Below are positions 45,716 to 51,268 of a stretch of 64,000 bases of DNA, one piece after another. Position 1 is the first letter of the stretch, and each line of letters begins with the position of its first letter. The translations under genes were made by a program, and so were the position numbers. The stretch is taken from contig CAWCFX010000004.1 in the NCBI GenBank assembly GCA_963795085.1, positions 704,001 through 768,000 on the forward strand, given 5' to 3'. The notes beneath the pieces were generated by a model. That model was not told where the DNA came from, searched no databases, and saw nothing but the letters and a program-made list of their open reading frames with translations. The DNA is from an uncultured Gemmatimonadales bacterium. GTDB taxonomy: Bacteria > Gemmatimonadota > Gemmatimonadetes > Gemmatimonadales > GWC2-71-9.

Positions 45716-46011
45716 GGGGGAATGGGAATGGGAATGGGGAATTGAGGGAATTGAGGGAATGAGGGAATTGAGGGAATGTGGGAATTGTAAAGGCATCCTC
45801 CAATTCCAACATTCCCTCAATTCCACCATTCCCTCAATTCCCCCATTCCCTCAATTCCCCCATTCCCTCAATTCCAACATTCCCTCACTTCCAACATTCC
45901 CTCAATTCCAACATTCCCTCAATTCCCCCATTCCCTCAATTCCAACATTCCCTCAATTCCAACATTCCCTCAATTCCAACATTCCCTCAATTCCAACATT
46001 CCCTCAATTCC
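45716..46011. repeat. Head-to-head GGAATTGAG/GGGAAT arrays; right arm built of a 17-bp composite unit (CAATTCCAACATTCCCT)
   Basis: Left arm ~45716-45788, right arm ~45799-46011, between divergent genes. Confidence 0.93.
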
Positions 46012-46032
46012 TCCTTTCCCTTACCTTGCGAC

Positions 46033-48660
46033 ATGCCCCCTCATCTCGATCGCCTCAAGACCCTCCTCCGGGAGCGCTACGCCATCGAGCGCGAACTCGG
46101 CAGCGGGGGGATGGCCACGGTCTATCTCGCCGAGGACCTGCGGCACCACCGCAACGTGGCGGTCAAGGTGCTCCGCCCGGAGATCGCCGCCTCCCTCGGC
46201 AGCGAGCGGTTCTTCCGGGAAATCGAGGTGGCCGCACGGCTGCAGCATCCCCACATCCTCCCCCTCCTCGATTCCGGCGAAGGCGACGGGCTCTACTGGT
46301 TCGTCATGCCCTATGTGGCGGGGGAATCGCTGCGCGACCGGCTGACCCGGGAGGGCGAGCTGCCGGTGCACGACGCGGTGAAGATCCTGGCCGAGGTGGT
46401 GGACGCGCTGGCCGCGGCGCACGCGGAGGGCGTGGTGCACCGGGACATCAAGCCGGACAACGTGATGCTTTCCGGCCGACATGCGCTGGTGACCGACTTC
46501 GGGGTGGCCAAGGCGGTGAGCGAGGCGACCGGCCGGCAGACGCTGACCACCGCCGGGGTGGCCCTCGGCACCCCGTCCTACATGGCGCCGGAGCAGGCGA
46601 CGGCCGATCCCCAGCTCGACCACCGGGTGGACATTTACGCCGCGGGAGTGTTGGGCTACGAAATGCTGACGGGCAGCCCGCCGTTCGTCGGGCGGAGTGC
46701 GCAGGAGATCCTGGCGGCGCAGGTAACCCAGGCGCCGATGGCGATCACGGCCCGGCGAGCCGCGGTGCCGGCGGCGCTCGAGGCGGTGCTGATGAAGTGC
46801 CTGGAGAAGCGCCCCGCCGACCGGTGGCAGCACGCGGAGGAGCTGCTGGCCCAGCTGGAGGTCCTGGCCACGCCGAGCGCGGGGATGACCCCGGTCCAGA
46901 CCCGGCCGATCCCCGCGGTGGCGGCGCCGCCCCGGCAGTTTCCCCGTTGGGCCGCGTGGCTCACGGGCGGGGCGCTGGTGGCGGGCGGCGCGCTGGCGCT
47001 CAGCCTTCGGCAGTCGCCGCCCGACCTGGTGCGGCTTGGTCAACGCACCGTGGTGGCGGCCGAGCCGGCGTTCGAGGGCTGGCCCTCGCTCTCGCCGGAT
47101 GGGAAAGTCATCGCCTATGGCCGGTGGGAGGCGGGCGTCCAGGAAGTCATCGTGCAGCAGGTGGACGGCGGGGCGCCTGTCGTGGTGACCGCCCCGGTGC
47201 CGGGCGCCAACGGCTTGTCGGCCATCTCGCCCGATGGAAGCCGGATGCTCATGGTCGGCGACGATGGGCTCTACCTGATGCCCACCCTTGGGGGCCAGGC
47301 GCGGGTGGTCGCGACCGCGCCCGCCCTGTTCCCGGCCTGGTCAGCGGATGGCTCCCGGTTTGCCTTCGTCGGCGGCGGTGCGCTCGACACCCTCTACCTG
47401 CAGGCGCTGGAGGGGTCGGGCCGCACGGTGATCGCGACTGGGGCGATGATCCATTCTCCCGCCTGGTCCACCGATGGCGAATGGGTCGCCTACGTGGAGG
47501 GGAACGTCTTTTTCCATACCAGGGGAAACACGGCGCCCAGCTCTCTCAAGCTGGTCCGCGCTTCGGGGGGCACGCCCATCGCGCTCAGCGATTCGACTTC
47601 GCTCAACACGAGCCCGGTGTGGATCCCCGGGCGGCGGGCGCTCCTGTTCATCAGCAATCGCGAAGGGGGGCGGGACATCTACCAGCTGGAGGTGAAAGGC
47701 TCGGGGCAGCCGCAGGGCAGGGGCGTCAGGATCACCACCGGCCTCAACCCGGAACGGCTCAGCTTCTCGGCGGACGGCCGCCGGCTGGCCTGGTCGGTCC
47801 TGACCCAGACCTCGAACGTGTGGTCCATCGCCATTCCCGGCCGGGACTCGGTGCCGCTCTCCCGGGCCCGCCAGGTGACCAGCGGAACCCAGAATATCGA
47901 GAACGCAGTGGTGTCCTCCGACGGGTGGCTCTACTACGACTCGGACCGGAGCGGCAACTTCGATATCTGGCGGATTCCCCTGGCCGGCGGCCAGCCGCAG
48001 CAGCTCACCACCGATCCCGCCGATGATTTTGCGCCGGATCCCTCACCCGACGGTAAGCAGGTGGCCTTCCACTCCACGAGAAACGGGGTCAACAACCGGG
48101 ACATCTTCGTGATGCCTGTAGGGGGAGGAGCGGCGGTCCAGGTTTCGACCAGTCCGGGGGACGATCGCGGCCCCAACTGGTCGCCGGATGGCCGGTTCCT
48201 GTCCTGGGGTGATAACTACTCCGACAGCGGGGTGCTGTTGGTGGAGCAACAGCCCCGCGGCGGCTGGTCGGCCCCGAGACGGTTCCTCGGCCACGGAGGA
48301 GATTCCTGGTCAGCCGATGGGCGGTTTGTAATCTTCGATTCGCTGGGCATGCACCTCGTGGATCCGGGCGCCGGGGGGCGCAGCCTGCTGCTCTCCATGC
48401 AGGCGATAGGAGGCCGGGGCTTCTCCTACAGCGTCCTGTCCGCCGACCTGCGCACCGTGTACGCCCCGAGAGTGGACAGCACCGGCCGGTTTTCCATCGT
48501 GGCCTTTCCGGTGGGAGGGGAAACCTCCCGCACCCTGGTGTACGCCGATAACCCGCTGGCACAGCAGCACCGCTACGGGCTGGAGGTGTCCGGCGGCCGG
48601 TTCTATGTGCCGGTGTTGGAGGCGAAGCTGGACGTATGGGTGGGGGAGGTGAGGCAGTGA
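46033..48660 (+). CDS. Ser/Thr protein kinase with TM and TolB-like (PD40) propellers
   Basis: GSGGMA, HRDIKPDN, DFG, YMAPE; repeated SPDG/WSxDG blades. Confidence 0.93.
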   Translation: MPPHLDRLKTLLRERYAIERELGSGGMATVYLAEDLRHHRNVAVKVLRPEIAASLGSERFFREIEVAARLQHPHILPLLDSGEGDGLYWFVMPYVAGESLRDRLTREGELPVHDAVKILAEVVDALAAAHAEGVVHRDIKPDNVMLSGRHALVTDFGVAKAVSEATGRQTLTTAGVALGTPSYMAPEQATADPQLDHRVDIYAAGVLGYEMLTGSPPFVGRSAQEILAAQVTQAPMAITARRAAVPAALEAVLMKCLEKRPADRWQHAEELLAQLEVLATPSAGMTPVQTRPIPAVAAPPRQFPRWAAWLTGGALVAGGALALSLRQSPPDLVRLGQRTVVAAEPAFEGWPSLSPDGKVIAYGRWEAGVQEVIVQQVDGGAPVVVTAPVPGANGLSAISPDGSRMLMVGDDGLYLMPTLGGQARVVATAPALFPAWSADGSRFAFVGGGALDTLYLQALEGSGRTVIATGAMIHSPAWSTDGEWVAYVEGNVFFHTRGNTAPSSLKLVRASGGTPIALSDSTSLNTSPVWIPGRRALLFISNREGGRDIYQLEVKGSGQPQGRGVRITTGLNPERLSFSADGRRLAWSVLTQTSNVWSIAIPGRDSVPLSRARQVTSGTQNIENAVVSSDGWLYYDSDRSGNFDIWRIPLAGGQPQQLTTDPADDFAPDPSPDGKQVAFHSTRNGVNNRDIFVMPVGGGAAVQVSTSPGDDRGPNWSPDGRFLSWGDNYSDSGVLLVEQQPRGGWSAPRRFLGHGGDSWSADGRFVIFDSLGMHLVDPGAGGRSLLLSMQAIGGRGFSYSVLSADLRTVYAPRVDSTGRFSIVAFPVGGETSRTLVYADNPLAQQHRYGLEVSGGRFYVPVLEAKLDVWVGEVRQ

Positions 48661-48909
48661 GAGTGCAGAGTGCAGAGTGCAGAGTGCAGAGTGACGAGTG
48701 ACGAGTGCAGAGTACAGAGTACAGAGTACAGAGTGACGAGTACTGAGTAACTAATCCTTGTTCAAATCACCAACGTTGTTGTCCGCCTTTGCCGGTTCAG
48801 ATCCCTAACCCCCTGACCCCCTTTCCTTGCCCCCCTGCCCTCCTGCCCCCTTGCCCCCTTCCTGTCCCACTGACCCACTGACCCACTGACCCACTGTCCC
48901 ACTGTCCCT
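48661..48909. repeat. Head-to-head mixed arrays: (GAGTRCA)n left; (CCCCYTGC)n + (TGWCCCAC)n right
   Basis: Left arm 48661-48749 begins at the stop; ~50-bp spacer; right arm 48803-48909 ends at a -35 box. Confidence 0.92.
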
Positions 48910-48910
48910 C

Positions 48911-48939
48911 TTGACGACCCGCCACCCCGCCTGTACTCT
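48911..48939 (+). promoter_or_regulatory. Sigma70-type promoter TTGACG-N17-TACTCT
   Basis: Near-consensus hexamers with exact 17-nt spacing. Confidence 0.7.
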
Positions 48940-48945
48940 GGTCGC

Positions 48946-49076
48946 AGGCGTGCAGGACGCCTCCCGTCCGCGGGAAGGACCGAGTCCACCTGCGTAGTGC
49001 GCAGGACGAAGAGTTCGAATCCCACGAACCTCCTTCGCCCGGGCCAGCGGACCTCGGGCGCCACAGGAGGCTCGTT
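48946..49076 (+). ncRNA. Candidate structured cis-regulatory 5' leader RNA
   Basis: Five helices found by eye between the predicted TSS and the GGAGG RBS (49066-49070). Confidence 0.5.
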
Positions 49077-50375
49077 ATGCCCGTTCGTCGCCTGCCGGTT
49101 CGTCCCGATCTCACCCAGCTCAAGCACCAGGCCAAGGACCTGCTCCGCGCGTTTCGCCGCGGTGATCGCCGAGGCGGTGGCACTCTTCCGCCGAGTGGCA
49201 TCCAGGCGTCATACCGGAGGGAGCGAAGCTGGCCGACGCGCAGCATGCGCTGGCGCGGTCCTACGGCGCCGCCAGTTGGACCCGGGTGGTGCAGTGCTGC
49301 CAGCTGATCGACGCCATCTGGGACGACGACCTCGACAGCGTTCGCCGCCTGGTCACGGCCCATCCCAATCTCCTCACCGAGAACGCCGGCATCGGCAACC
49401 GGAACTGGGGGCCGCCGATGAGCTACGCCGCCAATCTCGGACGCGACCGGATCATCCGGCTGCTGTACGACCTGGGCGCGCGTGATCTCGAGACGGCGAT
49501 CGACCGCGCGGTGCTCCAGAGCCGAGTGAGCACCGCCGCGATGCTGCACGAGATGCTGGGCCGGGCGACGCCGCCGGACGACGCCTTCGGCGGGCCGGCC
49601 TATACCCTGAGCGTGCCGGGCACGGAGTTTCTCTTCCGGGTGGGAGCGCGGGTCCGGTTTCCCGATGGCAGCCAGCGGGCACCGGTCGAGGCGGCGATCG
49701 GGTCCGACAGCCGGAACCCGGCGGCCAAGCGGCGGATCCTCGAGCTCTACGCCGAGCATGGGTACGAGTACCCGGACACGCCGATCATGGCGTTTCACCG
49801 CGGGCGGTTCGACCTGCTGGAAGAGCACCTGGCCCGGGACCCCGGGCTGCTCGCACCGCCGGTTCGCGATCCACGAGATCTTCCCGCCGGAGGTGGGATG
49901 CCACCACCCACCGTACGAGTGCATGGGGACGCCGGTGGACGGCGGCACGCTGCTCCACCTGGCGGTGTACTGGGACGAGCTGGACATGGCGGAGTGGCTG
50001 CTGGAGCGCGGCGCCGACGTCAACGCGGGGACGGCCCTCGAGGTCGACGGGTTCGGGGGACACACCCCGCTCTTCAACGCGGTAGTATCCCAGGCCGCTT
50101 TCTGGATGAACTACCAGGGCGGCGGGCCCCCTCGGCCGGAGGACGCACGGTTCGCCGAGCTGCTGCTCGCGCGCGGGGCCGACCCGAACGCGCGGGCGTC
50201 CATCCGGATGCGGCTGGGCGAGGGCCATGGCGATCCCCGCATCCGGGAGTTCCGGGATGTCACCCCCCTCGACTGGGCTCGGCGGTTGCACGACGAGACG
50301 CTGCCGGAGAGCAAGCACAGCGAGCGGCTGTTTGTGAACCAGGCGGCGGTCAAGCTACTCAGCATTGAGGACTGA
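49077..50375 (+). CDS. Ankyrin-repeat protein with N-terminal LPxRPDLxQLKxQAKDLL domain; three +1 frameshifts (~49167, ~49191, ~49856)
   Basis: GGTLLHLA..LLERGADVN, GHTPLFNA, LLARGADPN; removing three extra C gives one ORF (..GDAEAVALFREWHP..LADAQHALARSYG..). Confidence 0.8.
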
Positions 50376-50390: not shown

Positions 50391-50392
50391 AA

Positions 50393-51182
50393 GTCATTGC
50401 GAGGAGCGCGCAGCGCGACGAAGCAATCTGGCTCGGGTGAGCCGGTGAGCGGATTGCCACGTCGGCCTGCGGCCTCCTCGCAATGACTGCGCTATTTATC
50501 CGGTGCAGTCGTCTGTCGCACTGGGAGTTTCCATAGTCATTGCGAGGAGCGCGCAGCGCGACGAAGCAATCTGGCTCGGGTGAGCAGGTAAGCAGTGCCA
50601 CGTCCCGGGCCTCCTCGCAGTGACTGCGCATTCATCCGGCGCAGCGTCGGCCTGCGGCCTCCTCGCCATGATTGCCCTATGTTCCGGCGGCAGGGAGCAG
50701 GTTCTTTCGCACTGGGAGTTTCCATAGTCATTGCGAGGAGCGCGCAGCGCGACGAAGCAATCTGGCTCGGGTGGGCAGGAAGCCCGCTCCCGAGCCAGGT
50801 GAGCAGATTGCCACGTCGGCCTGCGGCCTCCTCGCAATGACTGCCCTATGTTCCGGCGGCAGGGAGCAGGTTCTTTCGCACAGGGAGATTCCATAGTCAT
50901 TGCGAGGAGCGCGCAGCGCGACGAAGCAATCTGGCTCGGGTGCGAAGCCGGTGAGCAGATTGCCACGTCGGCCTGCGGCCTCCTCGCAATGACTGCCTAT
51001 GTTCCCAAGCCAGGTGAGCAGATTGCCACGTCGGCCTGCGGCCTCCTCGCAATGACTACCTCGGTTCCCAAGCCAGGTGAGCAGATTGCCACGTCGGCCT
51101 GCGGCCTCCTCGCAATGACTGCCGAGGTTCCCAAGCCGGGTGAACAGATTGCCACGTCGGCCTGCGGCCTCCTCGCAATGAC
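50393..51182. repeat. REP/BIME-like cluster of GTCATTGCGAG...GCAATC palindromes
   Basis: Four forward copies (50393, 50536, 50727, 50896); six near-perfect and two degenerate reverse copies. Confidence 0.92.
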
Positions 51183-51268
51183 TGCCCCCCCGTCCGGCCT
51201 GGCCCCGCATTAGGATTCGAGGCCCGCGCCCGGTGCGATCCCGGATGTCTCCTTCAAGGAGGATCTCC

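Follow-up and report, generated by a model that had tools for sequence, protein, structure and literature searches.

Structured cis-regulatory leaders that hide the Shine-Dalgarno (SD) sequence are a known kind of element, and several described systems lie close to the leader RNA considered here, which precedes a gene for an ankyrin repeat protein in a stretch of 64,000 nucleotides (nt), hereafter the window, from an uncultured Gemmatimonadales bacterium (GenBank assembly GCA_963795085.1, contig CAWCFX010000004.1, positions 704,001 to 768,000 of the forward strand). The ZTP (pfl) riboswitch (RF01750) is composed of two sub-domains on either side of a linker of variable length, which a long-range or pseudoknot helix brings together; its 3' part overlaps the expression platform and it occurs in many phyla. 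SAM-II, preQ1-II and guanidine-III riboswitches occlude the SD sequence and contain conserved unpaired nucleotides in an H-type pseudoknot. Ribosomal-protein leaders and the operator of thrS (threonyl-tRNA synthetase) are autoregulatory, protein-binding elements that involve the ribosome-binding site, while ROSE and fourU thermometers pair the SD sequence in a hairpin of the 5' untranslated region.

The leader resembled ZTP (pfl) in its sub-domains with variable linker and long-range junction, in the overlap of its 3' part with the platform and in its wide spread. It differed in that the ZTP model gave no match, that helices and conserved nucleotides were others and that the genes concerned encoded repeat proteins with a common N-terminal domain (N-domain), not purine or folate functions. 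An H-type pseudoknot, conserved unpaired nucleotides and SD occlusion were shared with SAM-II, preQ1-II and guanidine-III, but here the SD sequence would be hidden by a separate anti-SD hairpin with its loop docked to the 5' domain, and the leader was much larger (about 130 nt), with two pseudoknot-type contacts and no Rfam match. Like ribosomal-protein and thrS leaders it preceded one protein family only and held the ribosome-binding site within its structure; in contrast to them it was conserved far more widely (eight or more phyla), no mimicked cellular RNA was identified and protein binding is putative. ROSE and fourU likewise pair the SD sequence, whereas the leader also has an invariant pseudoknotted domain upstream, with covarying pairs, and its sequestering helix is long and GC-rich; no Rfam model matched it. 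The leader is more than the simple SD-containing hairpin of an RNA thermometer, the conserved double-pseudoknotted 5' domain being part of the element.

The stretch was read as one copy of a widespread and conserved pseudoknotted 5' leader RNA that would serve as a translational switch by hiding the ribosome-binding site, with a probability of roughly 0.8 for the whole of this statement. A covariance model of the leader (R1) matched the window with 89.0 bits (E = 4.8e-19), which was its sole match in the 64 kb.

Homologous leaders were searched in contigs of one genome per species with a short core pattern of 19 fixed letters. At least 120 loci from at least eight phyla were recovered, and inspection by eye recognized the same element in 118 of the 120 listed. 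The 80 titled records among the matches listed comprised 44 Acidobacteriota, 13 Actinomycetota, nine Gemmatimonadota, five Pseudomonadota and one record each of Chloroflexota, Eisenbacteria, Myxococcota, Planctomycetota, Rhodothermales and Verrucomicrobiota, besides two unclassified records and one chance match (Bacteroidales). R1 scored 95 of 96 pattern loci at 55.9-104 bits and the chance locus L036 at 29 bits. Used without the pattern on 151 sampled genomes of the window's phylum, it detected leaders in 41 of them (69 matches in all, 1-5 in each positive genome). Of 151 genomes belonging to the same phylum as G184, which is the genome of an Acidobacteriaceae record, 13 had the leader, and five named-record genomes harbored 1-6 copies each. 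The core GUCCGCGG-RAA-GG-hairpin-CCACCUG was also encountered before the genes of L004, from the same genus as the window, and L006 (58% protein identity), and upstream of a further gene, with a product starting MSRILPGRPSLEHLKSQAK, in the genome that contains the window. Cultured carriers included Streptomyces, Kribbella, Nonomuraea, Caballeronia and Burkholderia (81 bits on a Burkholderia cenocepacia replicon) as well as the mobilizable 263 kb plasmid pMSC49b of Methylosinus sp. C49 (L200, 3001-4797), on which a leader of 74 bits is followed by a 555-aa 'hypothetical protein'; the unit can thus travel on plasmids. No pattern match was found in viral contigs. Three leader-plus-gene units lay inside 27 kb of one contig (G143 contig C6, 237594-264626).

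The fold was derived from alignments of these leaders. A plain MAFFT alignment held 87 non-redundant leaders, leaving out 17 near-duplicates, four truncated loci, two chance matches and 14 loci that aligned oddly or carried long insertions; from it RNAalifold alone predicted hairpins P1 and P2 and a long-range helix GUCCGC:GCGGAC. R1 was then composed of P1, a GG:CC pair set, P2, hairpin P4 and the helix between the SD sequence and an upstream anti-SD strand, while the long-range helix and a pairing of the P1 loop with a downstream CCUG (PK1) were not included. With 100 leaders aligned to R1, 92.6% of cells were paired versus 84.4 +/- 0.3 in shuffles, and partners slid along the alignment gave 43-50%. 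Among 54 leaders found without the pattern the values were 93.0% versus 83.2 +/- 0.4; none of 500 shuffles reached either alignment. Both-sided changes were present in 22 of 32 pairs of the 54-leader set, PK1 and the long-range helix included. The sequence-only reading had proposed looking upstream of homologs for a conserved and covarying structure, and such a structure is what these alignments displayed, its P1 (AGGCGT/ACGCCT) and P2 (GGAC/GTCC) stems covarying among homologous leaders.

Individual helices were supported as follows. The inner pairs of P2 were GC 37 / AU 17 and CG 38 / AU 10 / UA 3 / UG 3 in the 54 leaders. For PK1, pair 12-57 appeared as AU 34, GC 16 and GU 2 and pair 15-53 as GC 48, GU 3 and AU 2 with zero unpaired, and the variants CGGA:UCCG and xGGG:CCCx were observed. 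By comparison of the leaders, the P1 loop and CCUG showed up as an H-type pseudoknot, with the invariant segment GUCCGC-GG-RAA lying in between. The long-range helix was the core of the closing helix CCCG-TCCGC/GCGGA-CGGG drawn in the sequence-only reading; this core was paired in 100% of cells and displayed two double changes (UA to AU in L166, CG to UA in L182) plus G-U variants. Its CCCG/CGGG extension may exist: the CC at 48963-48964 possibly pairs with the GG of the P4 3' strand, the near invariance of these positions making covariation impossible. Covariation argues for an aptamer-like structure composed of P1, PK1, P2 and the long-range helix, and the RNA core was 97-100% conserved at about 25 positions across phyla. 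RNAalifold also proposed a pairing of GG 48972-48973 with CC 48989-48990, which was rejected: it displayed no covariation, four mismatches and a level of pairing equal to shuffles, and the partner with which this CC covaries is the P1 loop.

Behind CCUG, the linker ranged from 16 to 41 nt in the 54 leaders and its sequence was not conserved. The inner hairpins that the sequence-only reading had listed (CCTGCG/CGCAGG and CGAAG..CTTCG) lie in this linker, recurring only in same-genus L004, so that the conserved fold differs from the four-way junction proposed there; nor was that junction the minimum-energy fold of the window. The motifs themselves, namely TTGACG-N17-TACTCT, AGGCGT/ACGCCT, TCCGC/GCGGA, GGAC/GTCC, the inner stems, AGGAGG and the ATG at 49077, were all present in the sequence as listed there. 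PK1, the P4 hairpin, the anti-SD:SD helix and the three insertions in the reading frame treated below were absent from that reading. The linker of the window copy, and of no other, also holds GTTCGAATCC (49013-49022), a classic tRNA T-loop word. A tRNA or tRNA-like element was considered on this account and discarded: ARAGORN found no gene in the whole window and the word was absent from homologous leaders.

The SD sequence formed one strand of a covarying helix of 8-10 pairs with the upstream anti-SD strand, and this helix was capped by P4. In the window CGAACCUCCU pairs with AGGAGGCUCG, shortly ahead of the start codon. Double changes were found in nine of nine pairs of the anti-SD:SD helix in the 100-leader set (seven of nine in the 54-leader set), and P4 displayed both-sided changes in all five pairs of either set. 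The putative expression platform would overlap the aptamer, since the loop of P4 contributes one strand of the long-range helix while the anti-SD:SD helix and P4 covary. The spacer from GCGGAC to the 3' strand of P4 was 0-2 nt in 51 of the 54 leaders as aligned, and that on the 5' side 3-7 nt; on reading of the alignment, the remaining three look like misaligned insertions further 3'.

This arrangement suggests how a switch may work. The sequestering helix would hide the ribosome-binding site, and the 5' domain, by docking onto the P4 loop through GUCCGC:GCGGAC, would set the stability of that helix and so link the ribosome-binding site to a core that binds an effector. When the long-range helix was either forced or forbidden in a nested energy model of 142 leaders, the folds differed by +2.3 +/- 4.9 kcal/mol; the SD sequence was paired in 86% of positions without that helix versus 61% with it (142 constrained folds). 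Within this model, the near-equal energies of both states fit a two-state switch. A spacer of 0-2 nt would let the long-range helix stack on P4 to form one pseudoknot, by which an effector would lock the site shut. Given near-equal energies and a stacking geometry that allows locking, docking may either open or shut the site.

All leaders ended at the start codon of a gene encoding the same N-domain, which was found in all 103 readable distinct N-termini of 92 residues (loci with insufficient flanking sequence or a stop are outside this set). Conversely, the leader was located upstream of 18 of 19 domain genes in six genomes. The domain itself was far less conserved than the RNA, with 27% mean column identity, three invariant columns and identities of 25-65%. 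Its fusion to varied C-terminal parts, which the sequence-only reading had stated for the pattern LPxRPxLxQLKxQAK...LADAQ..LARxYG, was borne out by ankyrin, LRR and Clp_N forms. Among 38 distinct leader-linked proteins scanned with Pfam, 36 gave ankyrin matches (one of them, at full length, a single weak Ank_3 match plus Clp_N), one was LRR only (L194, 652 aa) and one gave no match (L137, 276 aa). In the window, the piece 49857-50369 matched Ank with 45.7 bits (cut-off 21.1) and Ank_2 with 40.1 bits (cut-off 27.3). A first protein search yielded only close ankyrin orthologues and a protein atlas search only 'ankyrin repeat protein' clusters, while a domain profile collected 2030 longer proteins at E <= 1e-5, the best 120 of which included ankyrin, LRR, LRR plus ankyrin and Clp_N forms. 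The longest upstream open reading frames of 50 loci displayed no common Pfam family. Two G143 proteins, one from contig C6 and one from C7, hold a second, internal copy of the N-domain.

The N-domain is without a Pfam family of its own and without a solved relative. An AlphaFold model of the L004 N-domain (pLDDT 87.7) displayed five helices; searched against PDB with Foldseek, its best E was 1.3, VIA-align over 48,161 chains gave a best Z of 4.0, and a sequence profile against PDB found a single chain, at E = 0.25; on these values a family can be neither assigned nor dismissed. Among known RNA-binding folds none resembles the predicted five-helix fold, which speaks neither for nor against RNA binding.

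What the switch would respond to is a separate question. The docked core may form a pocket in which one effector, a small molecule or an ion common to all phyla, is bound as in riboswitches; this reading was placed slightly short of even odds. The near invariance of some 25 RNA positions, set against 27% identity in the domain, favours a partner that does not vary. In its boldest and equally tentative form, the double-pseudoknot aptamer would constitute a new riboswitch class spanning at least eight phyla and controlling the translation of signalling or adaptor proteins, and the uncharacterised N-domain of these proteins may bind the same universally present ligand.

A doubtful but better surviving rival is feedback by the encoded protein, in which the N-domain or the whole protein would bind the 5' domain of the leader and shift the balance of the SD helix, in the manner of ribosomal-protein and thrS leaders; binding of the leader with the ankyrin part as a putative sensor was the proposal of the sequence-only reading. 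In an alternative bold reading, the N-domain would be a new RNA-binding fold feeding back on its own mRNA. The exclusive tie of the leader to one protein domain, as counted above, favours such feedback, and it persists across differing C-terminal parts (36 of 38 ankyrin, one LRR only, one without match); moreover, no metabolic genes stood under the leader and no conserved neighbours were found at the 50 loci. Against it stands the contrast between an RNA core near invariant across phyla and a domain with only three invariant columns. Promoter, leader and 5' coding part may also be inherited as a block while 3' parts swap, and RNA binding by the N-domain is putative.

Less probable still is an element free of a dedicated effector, be it constitutive damping by the anti-SD strand, a thermometer, or a universal partner such as the ribosome, a tRNA, a global RNA-binding protein or a small RNA. 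With 8-10 pairs plus P4 the SD-sequestering helix is long, and in fold predictions it forms unaided; a phylum-independent partner would explain an invariant core equally well as a small molecule does. A plain thermometer or attenuator, however, could do without an invariant, double-pseudoknotted 5' domain lying 60-100 nt upstream, and no thermometer or protein-binding family of Rfam matched. The P1 loop is occupied by its pairing with CCUG and so does not offer a free GGA loop to a CsrA-type protein.

Conservation at the DNA level (promoter or operator), or as a by-product of recent horizontal cassette spread with no RNA function, is very improbable, for although the unit stands alone among unrelated neighbours, a plasmid copy exists and some records from separate phyla have closely similar leaders (e.g. 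L025 versus L029), six helices are kept by compensatory changes that a DNA site would not need, N-domains have diverged to 25-65% identity around a fixed RNA core and the element lies downstream of a -10-like box.

Several points weigh against the preferred reading of a switch governed by a riboswitch-type core. P1, P2, P4 and the anti-SD helix were part of the model to which the alignments of 100 and 54 leaders were fitted, so that the counts for these helices favour them, and the leaders are kin, so that shuffle counts overstate significance. Folded alone, positions 48940-49080 of the window reached -64.9 kcal/mol versus -56.7 +/- 3.8 in shuffles (z = -2.15; two of 200 shuffles equal), and the long-range helix was absent from this minimum-energy fold. 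The comparison with shuffles proposed in the sequence-only reading thus came out in favour of a structure, but modestly; it settles nothing, and the evidence beyond chance is comparative (the R1 match above). The controlled genes belong to one protein family with no enzymes or transporters, and offer no ligand candidate; a target of one family is unusual for metabolite riboswitches and typical of feedback by the encoded protein. Some domain relatives lacked the leader, such as L005 (35-nt intergenic gap, no R1 match) and one on G184 contig C3. The effector is putative, and expression of the leader was not observed.

The leader is new with respect to Rfam 15 and the searchable literature. As the sequence-only reading had anticipated in recognizing no known riboswitch, cmscan with Rfam 15 gave no match for positions 48935-49080 of the window at E <= 10, nor for 12 leaders from different phyla at E <= 1. 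A full-text literature search, with subscription journals outside its scope, yielded no description of the motif, and the main texts of the motif-discovery papers PMC11109978, PMC8632094 and PMC5737381 (supplements not covered) mention neither ankyrin, glyoxalase, Burkholderia nor the phyla concerned. Being strongly conserved, widespread in soil bacteria and absent from Rfam, the leader would be an orphan regulatory RNA worth study. It marks a protein family without known function and with more than 2000 members, and the identity of its effector would reveal the signal behind these ankyrin, LRR and Clp_N proteins. Cultured strains carry it, so that it can be tested directly.

Table 1. Features of the leader RNA, its promoter and its gene in the window (position 1 is the first letter of the window; SD, Shine-Dalgarno)
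Feature	Position	Strand	Basis
-35-like hexamer TTGACG	48911..48916	+	sequence; T enriched at -57..-54 from GUCCGC in 142 leaders
-10-like hexamer TACTCT, 6 nt ahead of P1	48934..48939	+	A/T peak in 142 leaders; TAnnnT-like hexamers there in the alignment
Whole leader RNA, P1 to start codon	48946..49079	+	R1 match, ~130 nt
P1 hairpin AGGCG(U)/(A)CGCCU, loop GCAGG	48946..48962	+	RNAalifold on MAFFT alignment; compensatory changes in 2/4 pairs (100-leader set), 3/4 (54-leader set)
PK1 5' strand CAGG within P1 loop, partner 48989-48992	48953..48956	+	covariation
Near-invariant CC behind P1	48963..48964	+	C in 94% and 89% of the 142 leaders
Long-range helix 5' strand GUCCGC, partner 49047-49052	48966..48971	+	RNAalifold, covariation
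Unpaired conserved GG-GAA, consensus GG RAA	48972..48976	+	leader alignments
P2 hairpin GGAC-cga-GUCC	48977..48987	+	inner pairs covary; MAFFT alignment agrees
PK1 3' strand CCUG	48989..48992	+	covariation
Variable linker with CCTGCG/CGCAGG hairpin and part of CGAAG stem	48993..49024	+	lineage-specific; hairpin common only to L004
Anti-SD strand CGAACCUCCU	49025..49034	+	9/10 pairs with 49065-49074
P4 hairpin C-GCCCG/CGGGC-G, GCGGAC in loop	49036..49060	+	double changes in 5/5 pairs
Long-range helix 3' strand GCGGAC in P4 loop	49047..49052	+	RNAalifold, covariation
SD AGGAGG (49065-49070) and CUCG, 3' strand of sequestering helix	49065..49074	+	sequence, covariation
Gene for N-domain and ankyrin protein, broken in the assembly	49077..50375	+	three reading frames, Pfam Ank
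Coding region of N-terminal helical domain (LPxRPxLxQLKxQAK ... LADAQxxLARxYG), read across two insertions	49077..49340	+	N-terminus comparison

Upstream of the leader, the 142 distinct leaders displayed an A/T content of up to 60-70% at -33..-26 from GUCCGC and a rise of T at -57..-54, and these composition peaks coincided with the positions of TACTCT and TTGACG in the window. A simple promoter scan called no site at the two hexamers because TACTCT fits the consensus at three of six positions only. The transcript likely starts at P1. Sequencing runs containing the window sequence comprised four DNA runs, with small shares, and no RNA run was listed.

The gene downstream of the leader is interrupted in the assembly. 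Its product begins in frame 0 (MPVRRLPVRPDLTQLKHQAKDLLRAFRRGD) and shifts to frame 1 and later to frame 2, whereupon the ankyrin part is again read in frame 0. Uninterrupted relatives, 421-434 aa long, were found in two other genera and in a genome of the window's own genus (L004, with 85% identity). Comparison with L004 located single-base insertions near 49168, 49188 and 49854, each in a CGCCG context. A short-read soil contig (run X1) spanning 49826-50091 at depth 3, with one other letter, lacked the base at 49854; it possibly derives from the sample that yielded the window, and one contig alone can be wrong at depth 3. Near-identical contigs covered neither the 49168 nor the 49188 site. 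The three insertions are probably assembly errors. In the metagenome-assembled genome G184, two leader-linked genes (L161, 1625-1741, and L167, 1387-1503) stop after 39 codons while the N-domain continues in another frame; these breaks may be indel errors of long-read assembly, as in the window gene.

The N-domain was also compared with PF20066 (Glyoxalase_8), the N-part of which displayed a similar helix ... AKxL ... W..L pattern. Eleven of 92 N-domains weakly matched profile positions of about 4-60; L003 reached 12.4 bits, below the cut-off of 23.7, and the L004 N-domain gave no match. The family was detected in none of 151 genomes of the window's phylum. In contrast to the N-domain genes, none of nine PF20066 genes from Streptomycetales carried the leader; their N-part being only distantly alike, this is not a clean test of the domain without ankyrin. 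These nine genes (L183-L191) displayed a conserved stretch of their own about 150 nt ahead of the start (...gacaacgcgagcatcggc...gccgcgtggaaggctgacgc ATG), which R1 did not match and which may represent a different leader or close kinship only.

Repeats were abundant around the locus. Positions 45730-46011, at or just before the 5' end of a Ser/Thr kinase-PD40 gene (45778-48660), contain 12.4 tandem copies of a 17-nt unit (94% matches) besides a 9-nt repeat. Translated within the open reading frame as listed, these repeats give a repetitive peptide, so that the true start of the kinase probably lies further downstream. Directly behind the kinase stop codon, positions 48656-48749 displayed a 7-nt tandem array with about 12 copies of AGTGCAG/AGAGTAC, and a 16/24-nt array of the CCCACTGA type (48862-48908) ended 3 nt ahead of the -35-like hexamer. 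Downstream of the ankyrin gene, positions 50392-51199 were densely occupied by palindromic units (GTCATTGCGAGGAG ... CTCCTCGCAATGAC) in both orientations, together with a 63-nt tandem array at 50945-51186, and this cluster looks like REP-type extragenic elements. A related palindrome was encountered in L004 at about 2475-2545, upstream of the leader.

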